Shown here: in pieces, positions 1 to 17,278 of the stretch
Position numbering within the stretch: position 1 is the stretch's first letter
Layout of the letters: the number at the start of each line of letters is the position of its first letter
NCBI GenBank assembly: GCA_025611195.1
Contig: GCA_025611195.1_4718.2
DNA from: a phage
Length of the DNA: 64,000 nt
Direction: 5' to 3' (one strand)
Program-made: the position numbers and the translations under genes
Notes under the pieces: model-generated
What the model saw: only the letters and a program-made list of their open reading frames with translations
The model's database searches: none
Told to the model about the DNA's origin: nothing

Positions 1-542
1 GGAAAACCAGGTCGGAAAATATATACTTGAATATGTGTTAAAGCGTTATCGTTACCTCCACCAACAGCAACATTACGACGTCCGGATGATGGGAAATATT
101 CTTTTAAGAACAGGGGATCGGTTGCCAATAAAGAAGCAGGCCAAGGATTAGCGGATGCGTCAACATCGAATTCGGTCCATCGCCATTTGCGTCCGGTATC
201 GAACCAGGTTGACGTACCACCGCCACGCACCGCAAGATTGCGTGCATCACGGGCACTGTATATTGATTCGATGTTTCGCCACCCACCTTTTGCGGCGTTT
301 GCCGCATAGCAAATCGCATTACCACCATTCTTCTTTTCGTAAACGGTTCGTTTGATATGAACACGGTCGATAAACGCTTCACCGTATTTGTTGACAAGTG
401 TTTGCGCAATATCACGAAGATCGTGCATATGAAAGGCGATGTCTTCGTTGTGGAACCACGTTGTCGGGTTCCAAACGGTGCCGTTTGGTTCGGCACACAT
501 CGATCTGATATTGTTGCGCTGATTAATCGCGATAAAGCCCAT
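1..542 (-). CDS. hypothetical protein, N-terminal part only (gene runs off window start)
   Basis: Minus-strand frame from ATG at 542 (GAGGTGG upstream) is open to the window edge, about 180 codons (MGFIAINQRNN...). Absent from the ORF track because it has no in-window stop. Replaces ORF 104..496, which is in another frame. Confidence 0.5.
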   Translation of the reverse strand, partial: MGFIAINQRNNIRSMCAEPNGTVWNPTTWFHNEDIAFHMHDLRDIAQTLVNKYGEAFIDRVHIKRTVYEKKNGGNAICYAANAAKGGWRNIESIYSARDARNLAVRGGGTSTWFDTGRKWRWTEFDVDASANPWPASLLATDPLFLKEYFPSSGRRNVAVGGGNDNALTHIQVYIFRPGF

Positions 543-616
543 GGTCCACCTCGTTCCTGTTCTCGAAGGAAATTTCATACGATGACGCCATAACAGCTCC
601 CCCATCCCCCCAACCC

Positions 617-648
617 GTAAGGGAAGGGAGGATGTAAGGGAAGGAGGA
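617..648. repeat. tandem direct repeat GTAAGGGAAGG(G)AGGA x2 in intergenic spacer
   Basis: Two adjacent purine-rich copies between the lipoprotein gene stop and the next start, flanked by a C-rich run (CCCCCATCCCCCC). Confidence 0.4.
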
Positions 649-657
649 GCTATTTAA

Positions 658-1161
658 TTACTCGCTGACAACCTCAACGGAACTGGGATCGGCGATCAGC
701 GCACGGTCGGTAGAACAATTGAAGAAGACCATGCCAACACCATCGCCGTTCGAGTTCAGGGTTGAACTTACGTAAGACAATGTTGGTTTATTCATGCGGT
801 AGAAGCGTTCGTTGGTGGTGGTATTGAACCCCAGATCAACGTAGTCTTTCACCGTGGTGTACAGCTGGGTGGACTCGAAAACGGTTACCGGAGAGTCAAC
901 GGTAAACTGACTACCTTCGTCCACAATCAGAACCTTATCGTTCCAGATTTCAGTGGTTGAGAACTTCGGTTTCCAGTGTTCGAATTCCTGGGTTGCTCCC
1001 CAGCAGGAATACACAGCGAGATCGCTGTTCTTCTCAACCGGCTTCAAACCCACCAGTTGTGTCAGGCCTTTATCCAGATTCGGTAAGCCTTCCAGTGTAG
1101 CACACCCACCCAGAGAAAGTACCATCAACATACCGAGAATAATCGCGCAAAGTTTCTTCAT
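658..1161 (-). CDS. predicted lipoprotein
   Basis: N-terminus MKKLCAIILGMLMVLSLGGC has a signal peptide and lipobox (LGGC). AAGGAAA Shine-Dalgarno before ATG. Lies just downstream of the tail fibre and its chaperone. Confidence 0.7.
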   Translation of the reverse strand: MKKLCAIILGMLMVLSLGGCATLEGLPNLDKGLTQLVGLKPVEKNSDLAVYSCWGATQEFEHWKPKFSTTEIWNDKVLIVDEGSQFTVDSPVTVFESTQLYTTVKDYVDLGFNTTTNERFYRMNKPTLSYVSSTLNSNGDGVGMVFFNCSTDRALIADPSSVEVVSE

Positions 1162-1205
1162 CGTCGGATTTCCTTATGTGTTAACGGAAGTGATTTCCAT
1201 AGTAA

Positions 1206-1622
1206 TTACACAGTTTTAGGAAATTCCGGCCAGTCGATATTTGGCGCAGCATCGGTATCGATAGCCGTCACCTCGTCAATGTAATCCAAAACAGCATTAA
1301 GTTGGGCTGTTTCTTCCGGAGTCAGTTTTCGCCCAGCCCGTAATTTTAACTGAATAAGATCAATGGAAGCTAGCGCAGAATCAATCAAAGATTTTTTCAT
1401 CTGTTCTGCCTCGGCGACGAGATCTTCGTGTTGCCGCTCGGGTTCCGGGGGTGCGGTAAACTCACCATTTGAGTATAACCAACCTATTCCAGGCGACACG
1501 GCTACCGTATCGCTAATGCTGACCAACTGTTGATTGTCAGATACATCGAGCTCTGCTTCGCCATCGTAAACAATCGTGTTTACTACTACCCCATTTTCAA
1601 TAACAGCGTATGATGTACTCAT
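1206..1622 (-). CDS. tfa: tail fibre assembly chaperone (lambda Tfa-like)
   Basis: C-terminal region (AEAEQMKKSL...TDAAPNIDWPEFP) resembles the lambda Tfa C-terminus (AEETKKSL...TSTAPDIEWPAVP). Start set at the ATG that overlaps the fibre stop (TAATG); the ORF-track start at 1646 is further upstream. Confidence 0.8.
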   Translation of the reverse strand: MSTSYAVIENGVVVNTIVYDGEAELDVSDNQQLVSISDTVAVSPGIGWLYSNGEFTAPPEPERQHEDLVAEAEQMKKSLIDSALASIDLIQLKLRAGRKLTPEETAQLNAVLDYIDEVTAIDTDAAPNIDWPEFPKTV

Positions 1623-4600
1623 TACATAAACTCCTCGATGATGCAAATCCCGTCAGCGCCACGCCCACCACGCATAACGGTTCCAGTGTAACCGTTATCG
1701 TAAGCGCCGCCACCGCCCGAACCTCGTGCGAGGCCGTTTGACCCACCGCCAACAGCTGCACGACCACCGCCACCCCAATATGACGCACCCCCACCACCAC
1801 ATACAGGAAATGCGCCAGCTTGACCGTCATCACCATCACCACCTGAAATGCGTATATCCCCGGTACTAGGTACACCACCGCTGCCACCGCCAGTGTTTGT
1901 GACGGTTGTTTTTCCTGCACCTTGCCCACCGGGAGCAGTCAGCAGGGATGCAAATTTACTATCCCCGCCCCTGTTTCCAGTTGTTGCCCCGGAACCGCCA
2001 GTGCCACCAGAACCAATTACAACAGAATAACTAGTAGCTGCTACCGTTATAACCGAAATTACTGTTGCCCCGGCCCCACCGCCAGCACCAAAAAACGTTT
2101 CGCTGCCGGAAAAAGCCTGACAACCGCCGCCACCGCCACCGCCGCCGGTTATCGTTACTCTAATCCGTTTTGTTCCTTGTGTTGGGGTGTACGTCCCTGA
2201 CGATGTGAAAACACGCATGTTCAGTAAACGTCCGACATATCCACTAGAATCGGCTAAACCAAGATCTTTAGCTGCTAACGTGATATTAGCTGTGCCATCG
2301 AAAGGTTTACCGTTAATCGTGCGTGCCGTCTGCAGCTTCGTGGCCGTTGCTGCGTTTCCTGATGTATTCTGGTTTCCCGCGGCGTTAACACCTGGTAGAT
2401 TGATGTTCGCACTACCGTCGAAAGACACCCCACCAATAGTGCGGGCTGTTTTCAGTTTTGTCGCCGTGGCAGCATTACCGGTCGTGTCTTGGTTACCGGT
2501 GGTGTTTACCCCAGGTAGGTTGATATTGGCTGTTCCGTTAAATGAAACACCACCAATCGTCCTTGCCGTTTGCAACTTCGTTGCGGATGCCGCATTCCCC
2601 GTGGTGTTTTGGTTACCCGTCGCATTCACGCCTGGGATGCTATCCTTAGATGTGTAGATCTGTGCCCATTCCGACCAGTTCGAGTCGGCCGCATCACGAC
2701 GTGAACGTAGGTAAGCTGGAGCGTGTGCGCCTGAGGTACCTGACCACCCAATGAGGATTTCACCTTCACCGACCGATGAAGCCCCTTTAAGATGAATGAT
2801 GTTACCATAAGCGGTGGGATATCCGTTATTGTACGCTTCATACATCTGGATGCCCGCATTGCTGCCCTGAGCCGTGTTAGCTAAGGCCGTAACACGACCT
2901 TTGGAAGCGAGAGCGTTAATACTGAAGCTAATATCCTTAGTACCGTCAAAGGCGACCCCATTAATCTTCCGTGCTGTTTGGAGTTTCGTAGCAGTAGCCG
3001 CATTACCAGAGGTACTCTGATTACCTGCTTTGTTCACGCCCGGTAAATCAATGTTGGCTGTTCCATCAAAGGACACACCCCCGATGGTTCTCGCTGTCTG
3101 GAGTTTTGTTGCTGAACCAGCGTTTCCAGAAGTGCTTTGATTACCTGCCGCGTTGACACCCGGTAGGTCAATGCTAGCAGAACCATCAAAAGAAACTCCA
3201 CCGATCGTGATCGGTGTTTTCAATTTCGTGGCTGTCGCAGCATTACCCGTCGTATTCTGATTGCCAGCAGCATTAACACCAGGTAATGCGATATCGGTCG
3301 TACCATCGAACGCAACACCACCGACTTTACGGGCGGTCTGTAGCTTGGTCGCTGTAGCCGCGTTGCCGCTGGTATTTTGCGTGCCTGCTTTATTTACGCC
3401 AGGCAAATCAATGTTCGCAGTACCATCAAAAGAAACACCCCCGATGGTTCTCGCGGTCTCAAGTTTGGTTGCGCTTCCTGCGTTTCCGCTGGTGCTTTGA
3501 TTTCCCGCTGCATCAACACCTGGTAGACTGATGCTGGCCGAACCATCGAAACTCACACCGCCGATAGTAACAGCGGTTTTCAACTTCGTCGCCGTTGCTG
3601 CGTTACCGGTTGTATTTTGATTGCCTGTCGCATTAACGCCCGGTAATACAATATCCGCTGTTCCGTCAAAGGCAACGCCACCGATTCTACGTGCAGTTTG
3701 TAGCTTGGTTGCACTAGCAGCGTTACCGCTGGTATTCTGGGTGCCAGCTTTGTTAACACCGGGGAGATCGATATTAGCAGAACCATCGAAGCTGACGCCA
3801 CCTATCGTTCTTGCAGTAGCGAGTTTAGCTGCTGTGGCTGCATTATTACCCACTTTCAGCCAATCATCCCATGGACCATCCTGGCCGTTCCATGATGCCG
3901 TTAAACTACGTACGTAAATATTGCCGGTACGTACAGTGTAACGTTGCGTTCCACCGAATTGTCCGGCAGGGAGCACTTCAAGGTAACCTGCAGCATTTGC
4001 TTCAGGGAAATTGTGGGCGACGTCCGCGTTCGTTGATACTGGTTTAGACCAAATACCCACAGACGCTTCAACCGGACCGTAAGTATTCAGATTTGCGTCG
4101 GTGGGGAGCTGTCCTCGAAAACGTTGGAATTGTGTTGCCGATAACCCCAACGTTGTTTGCATGCTTTCAATGCTGGATTGCTGTAGTAACGTTCGTGCTG
4201 TCGACGTAATCACGGCAAGCGCAACTTTATTAACGCCGGTGAAATACGGGAGTTTGTCTGCTGATGTCGCTAAACCTGAAAAGGCGGTCAGTAATGCGTT
4301 AAGGGGCTGCTTCCCAGCTAACGCATTTGTTACCGTCGTTGCGAAATTAGGATCACTTCCTATAGCTCGAGCCAGCTTATTAAGCGTATTTAGCGTCGCT
4401 GGTGATGAGTCGATCAGCGCTGCGATCGCACGCATCACAAATTCCGTGTTGGCAATCTGTTGACTGCTATTGTTAACTGCTGCGGTGGGCGCTGCTGGCG
4501 TACCAGTGAATACAGGGCTATTAAGATCCGCTTTGAGGGCGATGAGGCGTTTAAGCGCTTCGACATCAACTTTCAGGTTTTCCCATCCGATGAGAGAACC

Positions 4601-5500
4601 ACCACCGCTGGTATGATAACGGTTGTACCAGAAGTCACCGTTAACACCCAAAAAGAATATTCCCTTCTCTTCGTTTTGTGGGCCGGAACTATTTCGTGAT
4701 GCGCTGATATATTTGATTTTAATAAGGCCGTTAAACACCACTCCTGGGATTATTTCGCTGCTTCCAGCTAACTGTGATACTTGGTAAATCCCCGGGGTCG
4801 CGGCTTTAACCCACGTTAAGAATTCTGTTACTCCAGAGTTACCACTGAAATTCTTAACGTCGGTAAGTATCGCACCATAACCGAACATACCGGGCAGAGC
4901 AACTCGCCCGTTGGTACGGTCACGAATATTTGATGCGACCACAGGTAGCTGTTTACGAACGTTATTAACCGCCTTTGGTGTGGCCGATTTTGTCTCATCG
5001 TCACTATCGATGGCATTGCTCAGGATGGTCAGTCCTCGCGTAGCAGTAGTTGCATCAGGAAGAAATGCGTTATCCAACACCTTAAGCTGTATTGCACTCG
5101 TATTACTAACAACGACATGCATCTGACAGTTAAGAACGCTAGTTGCGCCTTCGGTAGGCGTAGGCTTATATCTTTCTGGCGCACTGCAGACGGCAATCAG
5201 AACACCCTTGTCGTCGTACAGACCGATCTCACGTACCCAGAACCCACCTTGACCAGCAGGAATAATACCCTCAACGACAATCCTGGTTGTACTATCGCCA
5301 TCCGCATGGATATTAGAAACTTCCCCACGATAAACTTCGTGAACAAGCGCTGTTTGGCTGGCGGTCGGGGTTGGTGTCGAGCCGTTACCATCACCAACGG
5401 CAAAGTGTGTGATTTTTAGTTTCTCACCGTCGGGAAGTAACGCAGCGGTGATACGTTCTGCTCCTTTATCGGTAACTACCGTTTTATATGCTGTACTCAT
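1622..5500 (-). CDS. tail fibre protein (P2 gpH-like N-terminus, repeat shaft, glycine-rich C-terminal tip)
   Basis: 1292 aa. N-terminus (KTVVTDKGAERITAALLPDGEKLKITHFAVGDG...GGFWVREIGLYDDKGVLIAV) matches the P2 gpH tail-collar fibre N-terminal domain. About eleven 38-aa shaft repeats (TATKLKTARTIGGVSFDGSANIDLPGVNAAGNQ). Poly-Gly C-terminal domain. Followed by Tfa. Confidence 0.9.
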   Translation of the reverse strand: MSTAYKTVVTDKGAERITAALLPDGEKLKITHFAVGDGNGSTPTPTASQTALVHEVYRGEVSNIHADGDSTTRIVVEGIIPAGQGGFWVREIGLYDDKGVLIAVCSAPERYKPTPTEGATSVLNCQMHVVVSNTSAIQLKVLDNAFLPDATTATRGLTILSNAIDSDDETKSATPKAVNNVRKQLPVVASNIRDRTNGRVALPGMFGYGAILTDVKNFSGNSGVTEFLTWVKAATPGIYQVSQLAGSSEIIPGVVFNGLIKIKYISASRNSSGPQNEEKGIFFLGVNGDFWYNRYHTSGGGSLIGWENLKVDVEALKRLIALKADLNSPVFTGTPAAPTAAVNNSSQQIANTEFVMRAIAALIDSSPATLNTLNKLARAIGSDPNFATTVTNALAGKQPLNALLTAFSGLATSADKLPYFTGVNKVALAVITSTARTLLQQSSIESMQTTLGLSATQFQRFRGQLPTDANLNTYGPVEASVGIWSKPVSTNADVAHNFPEANAAGYLEVLPAGQFGGTQRYTVRTGNIYVRSLTASWNGQDGPWDDWLKVGNNAATAAKLATARTIGGVSFDGSANIDLPGVNKAGTQNTSGNAASATKLQTARRIGGVAFDGTADIVLPGVNATGNQNTTGNAATATKLKTAVTIGGVSFDGSASISLPGVDAAGNQSTSGNAGSATKLETARTIGGVSFDGTANIDLPGVNKAGTQNTSGNAATATKLQTARKVGGVAFDGTTDIALPGVNAAGNQNTTGNAATATKLKTPITIGGVSFDGSASIDLPGVNAAGNQSTSGNAGSATKLQTARTIGGVSFDGTANIDLPGVNKAGNQSTSGNAATATKLQTARKINGVAFDGTKDISFSINALASKGRVTALANTAQGSNAGIQMYEAYNNGYPTAYGNIIHLKGASSVGEGEILIGWSGTSGAHAPAYLRSRRDAADSNWSEWAQIYTSKDSIPGVNATGNQNTTGNAASATKLQTARTIGGVSFNGTANINLPGVNTTGNQDTTGNAATATKLKTARTIGGVSFDGSANINLPGVNAAGNQNTSGNAATATKLQTARTINGKPFDGTANITLAAKDLGLADSSGYVGRLLNMRVFTSSGTYTPTQGTKRIRVTITGGGGGGGGCQAFSGSETFFGAGGGAGATVISVITVAATSYSVVIGSGGTGGSGATTGNRGGDSKFASLLTAPGGQGAGKTTVTNTGGGSGGVPSTGDIRISGGDGDDGQAGAFPVCGGGGASYWGGGGRAAVGGGSNGLARGSGGGGAYDNGYTGTVMRGGRGADGICIIEEFM
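2290..2640 (-). repeat. intragenic tandem repeat block, about 3 x 114 bp (fibre shaft repeats)
   Basis: Imperfect 114-bp units within the fibre gene, each encoding a ...TARTIGGVSFDG..NI.LPGVN..GNQ.T.GNAA... unit. Confidence 0.8.
2925..3840 (-). repeat. intragenic tandem repeat block, about 8 x 114 bp with 342-bp higher-order periodicity
   Basis: Same 114-bp unit as 2290..2640. Three unit subtypes (K-, R- and V-type) recur in order, giving a 342-bp supra-repeat. Separated from the other block by a roughly 260-bp non-repeat insert. Confidence 0.8.
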
Positions 5501-5508
5501 GGTGTTTT

Positions 5509-6036
5509 TTATCCTGGATAAATAGTGATGATATCACCAATGACCGTTGTGGCACCGGCGTAAAGATGAGCCGGAGATACATCGTGTTGGTTTGTCACGG
5601 TAAGATCCAATCGACCACGCCAAACCATGGAGGTATTCGCGATGGGGATAGAAATCTTTTTGGATATATCGTCACGAAAATCAATAACAGTGGCAAGGGT
5701 AACTGTATCAAAGTCAACGTCGGGGTCAAAGACGAACCCGTATTGATCTGAAATCGCCCGAATAATCGCGTGTATAGTTGTTGTCTTAACAGACTCTAAA
5801 ACGATTTTTACTGGTATTCCTAGAAATGCCTTCGCAATATCGCGTCGAGCGTAAACGATAAAACTTTCACCGTTCCACCTTGTTCCTTCATTTGCCGTGA
5901 CGATCACTTTTGCCCTGTTAGCACCGGAACTTCCATCCAAGACTAATGTAAGATCGGAGCTGTTGAATACGCTACTGTTACGTCTGTTTATCAACGACGT
6001 CAGTTCGTCTTTCCATGGCGGGTAAAGTGAACACAT
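5509..6036 (-). CDS. short paralog carrying only the shared N-terminal module of the fibre-associated family
   Basis: MCSLYPPWKDELTSLINRRN...YARRDIAKAFLGIPVKIVL aligns to the N-termini of the 6194..7948, 11599..12429 and 48293..49744 products. Start moved to ATG 6036 (GGAGGAGGG upstream). Stop is 8 nt from the fibre start. Confidence 0.6.
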   Translation of the reverse strand: MCSLYPPWKDELTSLINRRNSSVFNSSDLTLVLDGSSGANRAKVIVTANEGTRWNGESFIVYARRDIAKAFLGIPVKIVLESVKTTTIHAIIRAISDQYGFVFDPDVDFDTVTLATVIDFRDDISKKISIPIANTSMVWRGRLDLTVTNQHDVSPAHLYAGATTVIGDIITIYPG

Positions 6037-6125
6037 ATGTGCACCCTCCTCCAACATAACCAGATTAAATATATATTTCTTAAACGTGGGACACGATTCG
6101 AGATAAACGTAAACGGCCTTAACGA

Positions 6126-6193: not shown

Positions 6194-7948
6194 TTATGCT
6201 GCTACATATCCAGGCCAACGTTCTCTTGGCCAGTTTGTTGCGCCCTGTCCAACGTTGTCCTTACCAGAAATTACGTTACTTACATCCCATCCACTCAGAT
6301 CCTGATTGAACGCGGTGTTTTCGCGCATCATGAGATCGATCTTACGTAGTGAACGGGTATTCCAGCCGGAAATGTCTTGGTTGAATGCTGTATTGTAGGC
6401 AAACATGTTAGACACGCTTTGTAATTTTGAGGTGTTCCAACCACTGATGTCGCTATTGAACGGCATGCTTGAGAACATGCTGCTCGCATCAACAAGGCTG
6501 TCGGTTTTCCAATTAACCAGTTTATCACCATCAAGTGCAGCGCTGCTGCTGAACATAAAACTCATGTCGTTAACTTTGGACACATCCCATTTATCCAACC
6601 CGTTACCCACGAACGCAGGACAGGACGAGAACATATAACTCATATTAGTAACCCGACTCACATTCCATTTACTGAAGTCGAGGTTAAGTTTCTGACACCC
6701 TAAGAAGGTTTTAGACATGTTGGTGATACGACTAACATCCCACTCTTGGATGTTGGGGTCGTTAAGTGTCGTTAAATAGTTGAACAACATCGCTAACGAC
6801 GTCCATTTCTCTGGAATCCGGTTTGGTACCGTACGAAGCGATGCGAGGTTGTTGGTTGACGGAGAGCAGAACATGCCGTTATCCCAATTTACGATCTCCG
6901 TAATTTTGGACCCTTTGATCGTCTGAGTGACGTTACCATCTTTCACCATACCTGTAGCGACGATGGTATATTCACCGGTGTCCGCATAATCGTGGGAGTA
7001 GGAGTTGTTGCTTGAGGTCTCCGTTACTTTATTCCCATCACCCCAATCGATATTGACCTTATCCCATCCACCTAGATAGAACTGTACTTTGCCTCCGGTG
7101 GCTTTTAGGATGTATTTACCCCCATTGTCTGTATAATAACAGACGACCATCGAACCGTACAGATTACCTATCTGCCAATCATCCTTTTGCGTTATTGCGA
7201 TTTGCGCCGCACCACGCTGTACGAAGAGTACCGTACGATTCTCGGCAGTCTGTAATGTGGTTATTGCCTGAGCCTTATCGTCCTCGCTAATTTCGCCAGA
7301 CACCACCAAAGCGCTTAACATCCTTTCGAAGTATTCGATCGGTAACTCGGTTCCAACAGACTTATCAACAGACGATACGGCAAGATCACCCAATGCTGCG
7401 GTGGTAGCCAACGCCAATGAACCCTTGGTCATATCTGTTTCTTGGATGTAATGCAGTCCTGTAAGCTGGTACGCTTGAATAATAGTAATCAGGTTCAGCG
7501 TATCGTTAACGACCTGTACCTGTAAATTCCCGGACCATACATAACTGCTTTCAGCAATCGGTAGTTCGACCGACTGAATACCCGATGTTTCAAAGGTGAT
7601 CTTCTTATTAAGATCGGTTTCCAGGAAATCAACCGCGAGGTCGAAATTCATGCCGTACTTTTCAGCGATGGAATCTACGATATTCTTGAAAGCAACATCT
7701 GTGCTTACGATAAAACGTAACGGAATTCCTGTAAACGCTTTAGCGATATCTCGACGAACATACGTAAGCGATTGTTCGAAGAAATAGGGACTGTTATCTC
7801 CAGGCTTGATGGTTACCTGACACGCTTCAGGATATTCAGCTGGGATGAACGATTCGAATTTAACATCAGATTCCTTCAACGAAAGCTTGTTATTTCGGTT
7901 CACTAACGCCAGAAGATCGGCTTTCCATCCGGGGTAAACTGTAGACAT
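6194..7948 (-). CDS. fibre-family protein: shared N-terminal module plus C-terminal DUF285/BspA-type repeats
   Basis: N-terminus MSTVYPGWKADLLALVNRNN... is paralogous to three other products. C-terminal half has repeated WDVS.V.NMS.MF..C.AFNQDISGW units typical of DUF285 (Mycoplasma/BspA-like) repeats. Start moved to ATG 7948 (GGAGTG upstream). Confidence 0.7.
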   Translation of the reverse strand: MSTVYPGWKADLLALVNRNNKLSLKESDVKFESFIPAEYPEACQVTIKPGDNSPYFFEQSLTYVRRDIAKAFTGIPLRFIVSTDVAFKNIVDSIAEKYGMNFDLAVDFLETDLNKKITFETSGIQSVELPIAESSYVWSGNLQVQVVNDTLNLITIIQAYQLTGLHYIQETDMTKGSLALATTAALGDLAVSSVDKSVGTELPIEYFERMLSALVVSGEISEDDKAQAITTLQTAENRTVLFVQRGAAQIAITQKDDWQIGNLYGSMVVCYYTDNGGKYILKATGGKVQFYLGGWDKVNIDWGDGNKVTETSSNNSYSHDYADTGEYTIVATGMVKDGNVTQTIKGSKITEIVNWDNGMFCSPSTNNLASLRTVPNRIPEKWTSLAMLFNYLTTLNDPNIQEWDVSRITNMSKTFLGCQKLNLDFSKWNVSRVTNMSYMFSSCPAFVGNGLDKWDVSKVNDMSFMFSSSAALDGDKLVNWKTDSLVDASSMFSSMPFNSDISGWNTSKLQSVSNMFAYNTAFNQDISGWNTRSLRKIDLMMRENTAFNQDLSGWDVSNVISGKDNVGQGATNWPRERWPGYVAA

Positions 7949-7966
7949 AAGCACTCCAAAGTTCAT

Positions 7967-11598: not shown

Positions 11599-12429
11599 TT
11601 AATCGTAACTGAAATAAAGTTTGCTGCTGACGCCGCTATCGGAATGAGGTTTTAATACCAGAACAGAGCTTCCGAACGACGGAAGTATCGGAACATTTAA
11701 ATCGTTTGCGTCGGCAACTTTTCCATTATAAACGACACTGGCTGTTGTGATAAGTTCCCAAGCTAAGGCATAACTCATTGAAATCAGTGAAGAGGCTAAA
11801 CGGAATGCGTTGTATCCTTCAGGAGAATCTCCAACCGACAATGAACGTATCGCATCTTGCGGTGGTAAATTTAGCTTGATGCCGTAGGTGCTAAACGTGT
11901 GGAAATCCCCTTGTTTACTATCTTCTGGATAATAAGAGGTTAGCGGTTCTCGCACCGTAATCAGTTCGCTAATATCGGTATTTACCGCTTTTCGCGCGAG
12001 GAATTGAAACGTACCGTACCACGATGCTGATGCATCAGAACGAATAGGAACAGTTATGGTTTTCTCGCCGCTTTCAAATTCAATCTGTGTCGCTAACATT
12101 GAAGAATCAAAGATCGTTAAATCGATCTTCAACCCATACTTCTTAAACAGCTGCGTTAAGCAGTCTGCTATAGTCGTCATATCAGCAACGACAATAAAAG
12201 GTTGGTGTTTGATAAAGAGCTTATTAATGTCTCGACGTTGAAGATAAACCTGTACCGGGTCTTCGATATAGTAAGTCGATTGTGATGTGGGGACTATAGA
12301 AAGGCGTAGCCGACCTGATGCACCATACCAGGCTGGCGTTAGCGTAATGTCTGACAGGGATAACGGATGCTGGAGATCGGTGTTTATTTTAGATAACACT
12401 TCCTCTTGCCATGATGCTTCAGGATACAT
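11599..12429 (-). CDS. fibre-family paralog (shared N-terminal module, distinct C-terminus)
   Basis: N-terminus MYPEASWQEEVLSKIN...YLQRRDINKLF aligns with the shared module. GAGG before ATG. Confidence 0.6.
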   Translation of the reverse strand: MYPEASWQEEVLSKINTDLQHPLSLSDITLTPAWYGASGRLRLSIVPTSQSTYYIEDPVQVYLQRRDINKLFIKHQPFIVVADMTTIADCLTQLFKKYGLKIDLTIFDSSMLATQIEFESGEKTITVPIRSDASASWYGTFQFLARKAVNTDISELITVREPLTSYYPEDSKQGDFHTFSTYGIKLNLPPQDAIRSLSVGDSPEGYNAFRLASSLISMSYALAWELITTASVVYNGKVADANDLNVPILPSFGSSVLVLKPHSDSGVSSKLYFSYD

Positions 12430-12564: not shown

Positions 12565-13143
12565 TTAGTAAGGAATCAGATCGTTAAGCTTTTCTTCTTC
12601 GATGACAAAGAAGTTGTTCTGGTCGTCTAAATCTGTTAACAGGACTTGTCCGACAGTAAAGCACGTGCCACCCTTCTTAGGCATCCATACCGGCTCATTC
12701 GTTACCTTATCGGGATACCATTTGAAACGATTGGTATCTAAGAAGAACGCTGCTTTGTTCGCTTTATCCGTTGAATGATAACTAACCAATGCAGGCCATT
12801 CAATCCAGGTATTTGTGCACGGCACATGTAAAGGATACCATGCACGCCAGCGTTTGCCTGGCTTGTTAGGATCAACCCAATACTCGGCAGTCAATACAGC
12901 ATCTTTATAATGTTTCTGTATTAACATTTCGAGCACAAGCTCATTACCCTTTGGTGAATCTAAAGTCACTTCAGCCATATAAAGGGATTTAGGTAATCCA
13001 GACTGTTTTGCGGGTGGTATTACGACACCGGTAACCAACGGTCTGCTCGGCTTACGCTTCTGTTCTTTCCGATGTGTGTAAAGGAATAGCCCGATAGCTG
13101 CGGCAACAAGTATAATAAACAACACTACCTTAATCCAATTCAT
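12565..13143 (-). CDS. membrane-anchored protein
   Basis: N-terminal hydrophobic helix (NWIKVVLFIILVAAAIGLFLY) followed by basic residues. ATGA overlap with the upstream gene. Confidence 0.6.
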   Translation of the reverse strand: MNWIKVVLFIILVAAAIGLFLYTHRKEQKRKPSRPLVTGVVIPPAKQSGLPKSLYMAEVTLDSPKGNELVLEMLIQKHYKDAVLTAEYWVDPNKPGKRWRAWYPLHVPCTNTWIEWPALVSYHSTDKANKAAFFLDTNRFKWYPDKVTNEPVWMPKKGGTCFTVGQVLLTDLDDQNNFFVIEEEKLNDLIPY

Positions 13144-14406: not shown

Positions 14407-14904
14407 TTACGCGTGTCGTCGTTTACCAAAGAAAATGTGATTGTCTACCACGGTGATATTGGTAGCGTGTTTTCTGAAATGTTTAGGGCGAAGATGTTTC
14501 GCGTTAAAGAATACGGCTCCTCGTGTTGGGTCGGCTTTATGGTAAGCCGCAATGTCAGTATAACGTAATGTTGCGACCTCTCGTGCTATCGCTCTTGCCC
14601 GCTCAAAAGCGGCATGATCGCGTATGACAATTCGTTGTTGTCTTGCCCAGGGGAATTGACCTCTTTGCAGTACGACGTCTCTGACGTTCGTAGGGAATCG
14701 GTAGTCCATAGATCGATTATGTATTAAAAACGCCACGGAGTATTGCCCTTTTACAGATTCGCCTCTGGCTTCCATATACACAGCGCATGCGACGATTTCT
14801 TTCCGGCAATCGATTCTAGGTCCTGCGTTCACCGATGCTTGACTTAACGGTGCGATAAGCAACATAACAAGCCCTAAAACCAACGTGTGTAAAATACCTT
14901 GCAT
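14407..14904 (-). CDS. secreted cell-wall hydrolase, SleB/Hydrolase_2 family (candidate endolysin)
   Basis: IVACAVYMEARGESVKGQYSVAFLIHNR matches the SleB-type cell-wall hydrolase signature. Start moved to ATG 14904, giving a signal-peptide-like N-terminus MQGILHTLVLGLVMLLIAPLSQASV. Confidence 0.75.
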   Translation of the reverse strand: MQGILHTLVLGLVMLLIAPLSQASVNAGPRIDCRKEIVACAVYMEARGESVKGQYSVAFLIHNRSMDYRFPTNVRDVVLQRGQFPWARQQRIVIRDHAAFERARAIAREVATLRYTDIAAYHKADPTRGAVFFNAKHLRPKHFRKHATNITVVDNHIFFGKRRHA

Positions 14905-14974
14905 CTTAATTAACCTCACGATAAGGTGCTGTCCACTGGCGTCTTGATAACGCATCCCGTCTATCGGGTTGTTC

Positions 14975-15487: not shown

Positions 15488-15691
15488 TTAAGTATTGTGT
15501 TTATTCCTACCTACATTCCTCAACAGTGTAACGATAACGAATACCGCTACCATCAAGAAGACGAACCATAACCCCACGTTAATTCGGACTGCTGGTTCAT
15601 CTACCATGAAGAACATCATCCCACAAAAACCAATTACCATCCATGCTAAAACCATCCCCGTTAATCCCCGTAGTAGCATATGTCCCATCAT
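15488..15691 (-). CDS. small two-TM membrane protein (holin-like)
   Basis: Start moved to ATG 15691 (AAGGAG upstream). 67 aa with two hydrophobic helices and a charged C-terminus (RNVGRNKHNT). Lies next to the SleB-type hydrolase. Confidence 0.5.
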   Translation of the reverse strand: MMGHMLLRGLTGMVLAWMVIGFCGMMFFMVDEPAVRINVGLWFVFLMVAVFVIVTLLRNVGRNKHNT

Positions 15692-15701
15692 GAACTCCTT
15701 C

Positions 15702-15872
15702 TTACTTCTTCTGATAGAGCGATGATTCAAATTTTAGAAACACCGCTAACGCGAGTGCGAGTAATAACGCACGTACCCACATACCTCCTTGACAACTGTT
15801 GTACAACATAAAGACCAGAGCGATGCCGCCCATATGTAGGCGGCACTTATCGAACAGTGTTGGTTTATACAT
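15702..15872 (-). CDS. possible small membrane ORF (56 aa)
   Basis: Frame MYKPTLFDK...MWVRALLLALALAVFLKFESSLYQKK is hydrophobic and ends just before the holin-like Shine-Dalgarno. No clear Shine-Dalgarno of its own. Confidence 0.25.
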   Translation of the reverse strand: MYKPTLFDKCRLHMGGIALVFMLYNSCQGGMWVRALLLALALAVFLKFESSLYQKK

Positions 15873-16092: not shown

Positions 16093-16443
16093 TTATTTAC
16101 CCAGATAGAGGTATTCGCCACCCTGAATAACACCGGTTGATGGGTCAACCAGTATGCGAACCCGCGCGTAGGTCTTGAAAGAGGGGTTGAAAACTTCGAA
16201 GTCAGCCACTTTCAATTTCACGCTGGGATTGATTGGATTCTTAACTCCTGGAAGTTCTTTCGGTAATCCGAAGTCGACTCCATATTCTTCAAGGTCTGCT
16301 GGTGTCATGCTCTCCATGGCCATGTAGATTGCTTTTGCTTTATCGTAAACCTCTGGGCTATCCAGCAACCCAGCCTGCGCTGAACCGACAACACTACCGA
16401 ACAGAATAGCAACAGCAACAAACAATTTAGTTAACGTTTTCAT
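16093..16443 (-). CDS. small secreted protein
   Basis: Signal peptide MKTLTKLFVAVAILFGSVVGSAQA with an AQA-G cleavage-type site. Confidence 0.6.
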   Translation of the reverse strand: MKTLTKLFVAVAILFGSVVGSAQAGLLDSPEVYDKAKAIYMAMESMTPADLEEYGVDFGLPKELPGVKNPINPSVKLKVADFEVFNPSFKTYARVRILVDPSTGVIQGGEYLYLGK

Positions 16444-16479: not shown

Positions 16480-16902
16480 TTAACGTACGGCTGCTACGCT
16501 GTTAGCGCATGCCTGAATATCATCGGTATTTACGATGATGGTTTCGTTAAACGCACGAATACGCGCACGACGGGCTTCTTTAAGGCTGGCGATTGCATTA
16601 GCAGCTTGATCTGTATTCGCAAGGCTAATAACCGGGATCAAACGCATATCCGGACTGCAGATATTCAATGCCTGGTATACACGTCCATTGATTCCTACGG
16701 TATCAGACATCGGATAGTGCGCGCGACATTGAAATTGACCCATGACAACAAGCGAACGATCGGAGATACCAATCTGATAACGACCGTCTTCGCTGTAGGT
16801 ATAGCAGTTATTCCCACGAGCCATCCAGTTAGCTTGCGCTTGTGCACTAACAAAAGCCAGGGTAGCGACGATAGCGAATGCGATATTTTTGAACAGTTTC
16901 AT
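16480..16902 (-). CDS. small secreted protein
   Basis: Start moved to ATG 16902 (AAGGAT upstream). Signal peptide MKLFKNIAFAIVATLAFVSAQAQA. Confidence 0.6.
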   Translation of the reverse strand: MKLFKNIAFAIVATLAFVSAQAQANWMARGNNCYTYSEDGRYQIGISDRSLVVMGQFQCRAHYPMSDTVGINGRVYQALNICSPDMRLIPVISLANTDQAANAIASLKEARRARIRAFNETIIVNTDDIQACANSVAAVR

Positions 16903-16960
16903 GATAAAGATCCTTATTGAAATAAAATCGGTATAAAGCCCCCCATTTAGGGGGACCTGA

Positions 16961-17278
16961 TTAGTTTGCACTTAAGAAATGACCCAGAACCGTTACGATT
17001 GGAAACAGTCCCGTAACCGTATTATCGCCCGAAAACATCATCTTTGAGTCGTTAACGGTGATGAAACGGATGTCGGTTGCGGATCCGTCGATAGCGACAA
17101 AACGCATCGAGTTTGGTGGAAGATCCTCAACAACTTCCACGAGGTGTTCACGATTTTCAAAGGCTTCTTTAACACGACGCATGAAACGAATCAATGTTCC
17201 TTCAGCGTCGGCTTCCAAATGACCTAAGATATCGCGATTATTGCGAATAGCGAATACAGTCATTTTAAACATACACAT
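16961..17278 (-). CDS. hypothetical protein
   Basis: 105-aa ORF with AAGAGGA before ATG; preceded by the TATATTAC-containing element. Confidence 0.5.
   Translation of the reverse strand: MCMFKMTVFAIRNNRDILGHLEADAEGTLIRFMRRVKEAFENREHLVEVVEDLPPNSMRFVAIDGSATDIRFITVNDSKMMFSGDNTVTGLFPIVTVLGHFLSAN

Follow-up and report, generated by a model that had tools for sequence, protein, structure and literature searches.

A conserved lipoprotein of Goslar-like and related jumbo phages: a predicted tethered beta-barrel with a possible role in envelope-level exclusion

The window studied here is a stretch of 64,000 nucleotides of phage DNA (assembly GCA_025611195.1, contig GCA_025611195.1_4718.2). It derives from a jumbo phage of E. 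coli that is Goslar-like and nucleus-forming. Close to its first position the minus strand carries a tail fibre gene, a tail-fibre assembly chaperone (Tfa) gene and a small lipoprotein gene, in that order. The original prediction of a 167-aa lipoprotein with an LGGC lipobox stands: the open reading frame is present as described and agrees fully with a PS51257-type lipoprotein rule. Its placement straight after the fibre and Tfa genes was likewise borne out, with a gap of 44 nt after the Caudo_TAP gene on the same strand. The features of the locus are as follows.

658..1161, minus strand: lipoprotein coding sequence, 167 aa plus stop, ATG start; phrog_9559; orthologues Goslar gp88, SPN3US gp159 and Kwan gp173
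1105..1161, minus strand: predicted signal peptide, residues 1-19 (MKKLCAIILGMLMVLSLGG), by the lipoprotein rule; predicted helix 2-18 (AlphaFold)
1102..1113, minus strand: lipobox L17-G18-G19-C20; Cys20 is the predicted acylated first mature residue, Ala at +2
1042..1101, minus strand: predicted flexible tether, residues ~21-40, low confidence (AlphaFold block pLDDT 41-56)
706..1041, minus strand: predicted 8-stranded beta-barrel domain, residues ~41-152 (AlphaFold), which carries the invariant residues
1169..1175, minus strand: Shine-Dalgarno sequence AAGGAAA, 7 nt upstream of the lipoprotein ATG
1198..1201, minus strand: TATG, phiKZ-type late-promoter core, 37 nt upstream of the lipoprotein ATG
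592..654, minus strand: GC-rich hairpin, part of a -47.8 kcal/mol fold, starting 4 nt past the lipoprotein stop
589..592, minus strand: TATG directly past the hairpin, probable promoter core of the next gene (ATG at 542)
592, 6146, 14365, 21228, 27346, 36151, 37750, 44119, 55430 and 56289, minus strand: TATG positions of hairpin-plus-TATG modules
1206..1622, minus strand: Caudo_TAP tail-fibre assembly chaperone (Tfa), 138 aa (PF02413, E 7.8e-21), overlapping the fibre stop by 1 nt
1622..5500, minus strand: P1 S-like tail fibre, 1292 aa, with Phage_tail_fib, Phage_fiber_2 and Gly_rich_2 (tip) matches and a repeat-rich shaft

The N-terminus of the lipoprotein reads MKKLCAIILGMLMVLSLGGC followed by ATLEG, with two Lys in the n-region and an uncharged h-region of 14 residues. 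It was screened with the lipobox pattern [LVI][ASTVIG][GAS]C with the Cys at position 15-35, and with a self-coded rule of the PROSITE PS51257 type that asks for a Cys at 15-35, [AGS] at -1, K/R near the N-terminus and no charged residue at -5 to -10. Every term of this rule holds for MKKLCAIILGMLMVLSLGGC. At the level of sequence, this rule-based test and the family-wide conservation of the lipobox described below confirm the gene product as a lipoprotein, with a mature part of ~147 aa. Cys20 is followed by Ala at +2 and not by Asp. In E. coli a residue other than Asp at this position leads to Lol-dependent sorting to the outer membrane, and since +2 is Ala such sorting, and hence an outer-membrane location, is predicted here. 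That the open reading frame arose by chance can be dismissed because its product is 94.6% identical to Goslar_00088 (Goslar gp88), has an exact match in NCBI (HCP6915967.1), has homologues at ~30% identity and shares with them the lipobox Cys.

The only PHROG matched is phrog_9559, a family with unannotated function (profile match, E 1.1e-20, residues 3-152). With tblastn, homologues of ~30% identity were detected in 55 phage records, every one of which is that of a jumbo phage of Erwinia, Salmonella, Escherichia or Proteus. When 5.8 billion clustered proteins were searched with a profile, 31 were returned, and an exhaustive HMMER search of 1.84 billion representatives returned only 12 clusters at E<1e-10. 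Given these counts, the family is, by the sequences searched, tiny and restricted to phages, namely nucleus-forming jumbo phages of Enterobacterales; the large contigs that carry its members measure 225-250 kb. We found no mention of the gene in two papers on chimalliviruses.

In the family alignment the lipobox Cys is kept in 31 of the 32 members, and the five most distant cluster representatives also have a lipobox. Invariant residues in this alignment are Y51, C53, G83, R119, Y121, S133, G139, G141 and C149. Scans of the lipoprotein and its homologues with Pfam, NCBIfam and PADLOC assigned no family, no Pfam family matching more than a few of the 32 members. DUF2846, the GenBank label of the pEa_SNUABM_43 homologue, was rejected as no member gave a DUF2846 match at E<=10. 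The 90%-identity cluster that includes the window lipoprotein has 258 members on contigs of 236-248 kb. The assemblies are drafts that carry the labels E. coli, Salmonella (Panama, Kentucky and Typhimurium) and Shigella flexneri; 5,426 complete E. coli genomes yielded no match. Goslar-like phages seem to travel with bacterial isolates, as a carrier state or as contamination.

The AlphaFold2 model is all-beta with pLDDT ~90 over residues 41-150, and BFVD models of the Kwan and Huxley homologues have this predicted fold as well. In the model C53 belongs to the first and C149 to the last strand, and the two probably form a disulfide. Hydrophobicity is confined to residues 1-19 and there is no C-terminal transmembrane segment; proline accounts for 6 of 148 residues, ~4% of the periplasmic part. 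A Foldseek search of the PDB gave nothing below E 1e-3 and a profile search of PDB sequences gave noise only (E>0.3). The weak structural matches include generic small barrels of lipocalin, YceI and LolA types, and several of the weak matches of the lipoprotein are lysozyme inhibitors.

TATG is the late-promoter core of the phiKZ non-virion RNA polymerase (PMC4666361). Upstream of the lipoprotein ATG it occurs at a distance of 37-67 nt in the window as well as in ten further phages or contigs (Goslar, L008, L010, L011, SPN3US, Kwan, S43, phiEaH2, S11 and S9), the sequence around it being otherwise not conserved among the orthologues; in contig L009, where the intergenic gap before the lipoprotein gene is 16 nt, no TATG was found upstream. 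The arrangement of hairpin and then TATG 3' of the gene recurs in L008-L011. Across the coding (minus) strand of the window 15 such hairpin-plus-TATG modules were counted, against a mean of 1.85 in shuffled sequences. Their hairpins are typically of the form CCCTCCC...GGGAGGG, with (T)TATG(C) within 8 nt. By analogy with phiKZ, these modules look like coupled terminators and late promoters that bound transcription units. The hairpin after the lipoprotein stop is probably such a unit end, and the lipoprotein gene would therefore close a unit of middle-to-late class read by the phage polymerase.

The lipoprotein is probably not a structural protein. In excerpts of the mass-spectrometry table of the SPN3US virion proteome the number 159 occurs only as a molecular mass and does not figure as a gene, whereas those excerpts list the adjacent 160 and 157 among the virion proteins (PMC5694885); it is because of this difference, within those excerpts, that we consider the protein a non-virion one.

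The mechanically called Tfa frame (1206..1646) opens at TTG 1646, within the fibre gene. The Goslar annotation and the 1-nt stop/start overlap make ATG 1622 the most likely real start. The fibre shaft is built of repeats of ~40 aa (...GNAA(T/S)ATKL(Q/K)TAR(T/K)IGGV(S/A)FDG...). Fibres of 1172, 1268 and 1292 aa occur among relatives, a length polymorphism that suggests gain and loss of repeats. From position 643 onward the window is 86.5% identical to Goslar in nucleotide sequence. Comparison of window 1..657 with Goslar (L001 5198..5839) showed that the similarity ends just beyond the lipoprotein stop codon. The next gene downstream (ATG at 542, exiting the window) encodes a product 94-95% identical to a 255-aa protein of L009 and L017, whereas its identity to Goslar_00087 is only 26%. 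Judged by these alignments, the window is a mosaic with breakpoints that flank the lipoprotein gene on both sides.

Further along the minus strand, the products of 5509..6057, 6194..7966 and 11599..12429 have a DUF7941 N-terminal domain in common, which is also encoded in L009, L010 and L016-L024; their C-terminal parts are very different (DUF285, LRR_5, NCTSP TIM-barrel). These neighbours were considered as receptor-binding proteins, an idea that was dropped as the related SPN3US gp153/gp154 family is reported to be head-associated. The SPN3US study reports this for the paralogue family that includes gp153 and gp154 because of its detection in tailless particles, and it reports gp157 (DUF1353) as a head protein too (PMC5694885). 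Because the related paralogues are reported to be head-associated, the DUF7941 proteins may be not tail fibres but display proteins anchored in the virion.

A SleB-like cell-wall hydrolase with an N-terminal signal/SAR-like hydrophobic segment is encoded at 14407..14955 on the same strand (PF07486, endolysin PHROGs). Beside it, also on the minus strand, lie 15488..15730, 15702..15872, 16093..16443 and 16480..16971; of the proteins encoded there, two have signal peptides, one of 80 aa has two TMDs and another is a TMD protein of 56 aa. This neighbourhood, ~11 kb upstream of the lipoprotein gene, may be a lysis/envelope cluster.

Comparison of loci shows that the company of the lipoprotein gene differs between lineages. 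The window, Goslar and L020-L023 combine a Gly_rich_2 fibre tip with Caudo_TAP. In L016-L019 a fibre of 1268 aa bears a Peptidase_S74 tip, Tfa is absent and the lipoprotein is 89% identical; L009 has a third tip type with a DUF4376 chaperone (lipoprotein 84% identical) and L011 an S74-like tip (77%). Close relatives overall keep the lipoprotein at 77-95% identity despite their differing fibre modules, and the last 260 aa of the alternative fibres have no similarity to the tip of the window fibre (E>4). The gene 3' of the lipoprotein gene also changes type, that of the window being of the 255-aa L009/L017 type and not Goslar_00087. In the mature domain, ~10 positions differ between the E. coli-type and Salmonella-type variants.

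In L008 and L010, which belong to the Goslar group with lipoproteins 48-49% identical, the gene stands directly after or between DUF7941 genes and neither an S-like fibre nor Tfa is found beside it; in L024, the most distant member, it closes a DUF7941 array. The lipoprotein gene is solitary in SPN3US, Kwan, phiEaH2 and the pEa_SNUABM phages, often on the strand opposite to both neighbours, and no Tfa or S-like fibre gene occurs near it. In these SPN3US-like and Erwinia loci it adjoins DUF7941-type virion-protein arrays and small paralogues of gp160, an abundant head protein; within 1-4 genes of it lie a 38-aa ORF and the genes of a DUF1353 protein and a GH108 lysozyme. At the loci of these phages, L002-L007, between one and three tandem gp160 paralogues (C-terminal motif NGELDGF) lie divergently upstream of the lipoprotein gene, which, near locus position 7000, has the opposite orientation to its neighbours in some of the genomes only.

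On these comparisons the adjacency to fibre and Tfa genes is a lineage-specific trait. Because fibre tip, chaperone and downstream gene vary while the lipoprotein is conserved, its gene is, by comparative sequence, a conserved island between recombining modules and not cargo of a fibre cassette. The conserved neighbourhood is an array of virion-protein genes, and neither a receptor-binding cluster nor a lysis cassette can be demonstrated in it.

How the protein could act is best outlined from its export. After export by Sec and acylation of Cys20, signal peptidase II would remove its signal peptide; since +2 is Ala, the Lol pathway would then carry it to the inner leaflet of the outer membrane. 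There a flexible linker of ~20 residues would hold a compact 8-stranded barrel, probably closed by a disulfide, in the periplasm of the infected cell. It would be expressed as the last gene of the fibre transcription unit, between an upstream TATG of the phage non-virion RNA polymerase and the terminator-like hairpin downstream. The topology, that of a phage-made, unpackaged barrel tethered to the outer membrane and facing the periplasm, is well supported by sequence and model. Its target would most likely be a conserved envelope or periplasmic component rather than the receptor of the adjacent fibre, because the mature domain is near-identical across unrelated tips and across phages recovered with E. 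coli, Salmonella and Shigella. With low confidence we suggest that binding such a component from the periplasmic side protects the infection at the level of the envelope, by excluding further injections of related phages or by limiting the loss of progeny on debris.

The exact role is harder to settle than the topology, and four other readings have to be set against exclusion or protection. The gene's position had suggested a receptor mask of the Llp/Cor type: attached on the periplasmic side to the outer-membrane receptor that the adjacent fibre recognises, the lipoprotein would prevent adsorption. The cor gene of T1 and phi80 is indeed encoded next to a host-recognition gene. T5 Llp is a periplasm-facing lipoprotein of 61 mature residues with its termini constrained by a disulfide, and it is the product of an early gene (PMC9586334). 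An outer-membrane lipoprotein encoded straight after fibre and chaperone genes, with an invariant Cys pair comparable to the disulfide-forming pair of Llp, resembles this arrangement, and a conserved secondary receptor, other than that of the fibre tip, would fit the absent co-variation. The positional argument fails nonetheless, the adjacency being lineage-specific and the tips swapped while the lipoprotein stays constant: fibre tip and chaperone are replaced or missing in relatives, and SPN3US-like phages have the gene away from fibre genes. Nor is there homology, as phrog_9559 is the sole PHROG match and no sequence relation to annotated exclusion lipoprotein families was found; the ~147 mature residues exceed both the 61 of Llp and the ~60-80 expected of the class, and a late-type promoter motif stands here in place of an early gene. 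We therefore regard a mask matched to the adjacent fibre as improbable. A part in lysis, as an atypical o-spanin or as some other late-acting disruptor or regulator of the outer membrane, is also unlikely, somewhat less so than the mask. Lipobox scans that took in the window together with Goslar 1-100 kb and 150-237 kb (Goslar 100-150 kb being covered through the homologous window only) gave no second credible lipoprotein, which leaves this one as the sole credible candidate in the regions scanned; its late-type TATG, the nearby GH108 lysozyme in the Erwinia and Salmonella relatives and the length of the verified phiKZ o-spanin, 120 codons (PMC12894885), point the same way. An o-spanin gene, however, lies within an i-spanin gene, overlaps it or follows it directly (PMC12894885). 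With an i-spanin taken as an N-terminal TMD plus a coiled-coil, TMD scans found no coiled-coil type-II membrane protein beside the lipoprotein gene: the upstream gene encodes the cytoplasmic Tfa here, and in SPN3US-like and Erwinia relatives it is an opposite-strand gene. Among proteins with an N-terminal TMD the nearest (12565..13143) is 11 kb off and does not look coiled-coil. The spanin-like function offered in the original prediction thus lost ground on several sides, with no adjacent i-spanin, no spanin match in PHROG or Pfam, and a periplasmic domain predicted as a confident globular barrel (pLDDT ~90) with 6 Pro in 148 residues; the missing C-terminal transmembrane segment also argues against a u-spanin of the T1 gp11 type. 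In Goslar 80 kb separate the lipoprotein gene from that of the GH108 protein, gp24, and SPN3US gp157 of the neighbouring cluster is reported as a head protein and not a lysis protein (PMC5694885).

A small barrel tethered to the outer membrane could also inhibit a hydrolase in the manner of MliC/PliC, acting on the lysozyme of an incoming tail or on a hydrolase that the phage itself secretes. MliC is itself a lipoprotein, with terminal cysteines, and for this reason, and because several weak matches are lysozyme inhibitors, the comparison was made. The E. coli MliC sequence used for hhalign was confirmed against PDB 2F09. Homology was rejected, as hhalign aligned the signal peptide only (probability 31%), and none of the 32 family members matched Pfam MliC (PF09864). 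That the barrel is a functional analogue, giving Spackle-like exclusion via the tail lysozyme or restraining the phage's own SleB-like or GH108 hydrolase until lysis, seems to us improbable. An accessory binding role in the periplasm, such as binding of a ligand or lipid or remodelling of the envelope, with no direct part in exclusion or lysis, has a better though still small chance: lipocalin, YceI and LolA-type barrels are among the weak structural matches and a patchy distribution among chimalliviruses marks an accessory gene, but such a role sits less easily with strong conservation in strictly lytic phages across host genera. Envelope-level exclusion or protection, Llp-like in its logic but not matched to a receptor, remains the most likely single reading, with reservations of its own. 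A late-type promoter suits exclusion less, T5 Llp being early. Expression timing is read from a 4-nt motif by analogy with phiKZ, and L009 is without TATG; being the sole credible lipoprotein in the scanned Goslar regions and the window leaves room for a lysis role, as does the GH108 lysozyme within 1-4 genes in SPN3US-like and Erwinia relatives. Our preference for a non-virion, outer-membrane-anchored periplasmic accessory protein with a conserved envelope target, probably serving exclusion or protection, is accordingly a tentative one that falls short of even odds; superinfection exclusion is possible in a looser sense of the term.

The cytoplasmic biology of nucleus-forming jumbo phages has been intensively studied, whereas very little is known of their actions at the envelope. 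A lipoprotein conserved across jumbo phages of E. coli, Salmonella, Shigella, Erwinia and Proteus is of interest in that respect. Should it prove to exclude related phages or to protect progeny, it would represent a new exclusion family with a conserved rather than a receptor-specific target, which would be relevant to the design of phage cocktails and to competition among chimalliviruses. If its role lies in lysis, a non-canonical step at the outer membrane would come to light.

Among known systems, T5 Llp and the Cor proteins of T1 and phi80 are likewise phage outer-membrane lipoproteins that face the periplasm and are encoded near a host-recognition gene. A disulfide is present in Llp and predicted in the window lipoprotein. 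Unlike Llp and Cor, the latter is a predicted beta-barrel without sequence similarity to them and without co-variation with the fibre tip, and it differs from T5 Llp in its late-type motif as opposed to an early promoter and in its mature length (~147 versus 61 aa). The o-spanins lambda Rz1 and phiKZ gp141.1 are outer-membrane lipoproteins of Gram-negative phages as well, gp141.1 being of comparable length; o-spanins are, however, linked to an i-spanin and have a periplasmic domain that is short, proline-rich and largely unstructured, whereas the window lipoprotein is unlinked and predicted to be globular. The inhibitors MliC, PliC, PhiA and ACP have inhibitory loop motifs (SGxxY in MliC/PliC) that are absent from the window lipoprotein, share no sequence or profile similarity with it and score no better against its barrel in structural comparison than unrelated barrels do. 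By any feature tested it therefore falls outside the Llp/Cor, spanin and MliC/PliC families. Its true homologues are Goslar gp88 (94.6% identity) and, at ~30%, gp173 of the Erwinia phage Kwan and gp159 of the Salmonella phage SPN3US. They differ in context, the gene being the last of a fibre operon here and a solitary, strand-switched gene in SPN3US-like phages, but all four proteins have the lipobox, Y51-x-C53, C149 and the predicted barrel in common.
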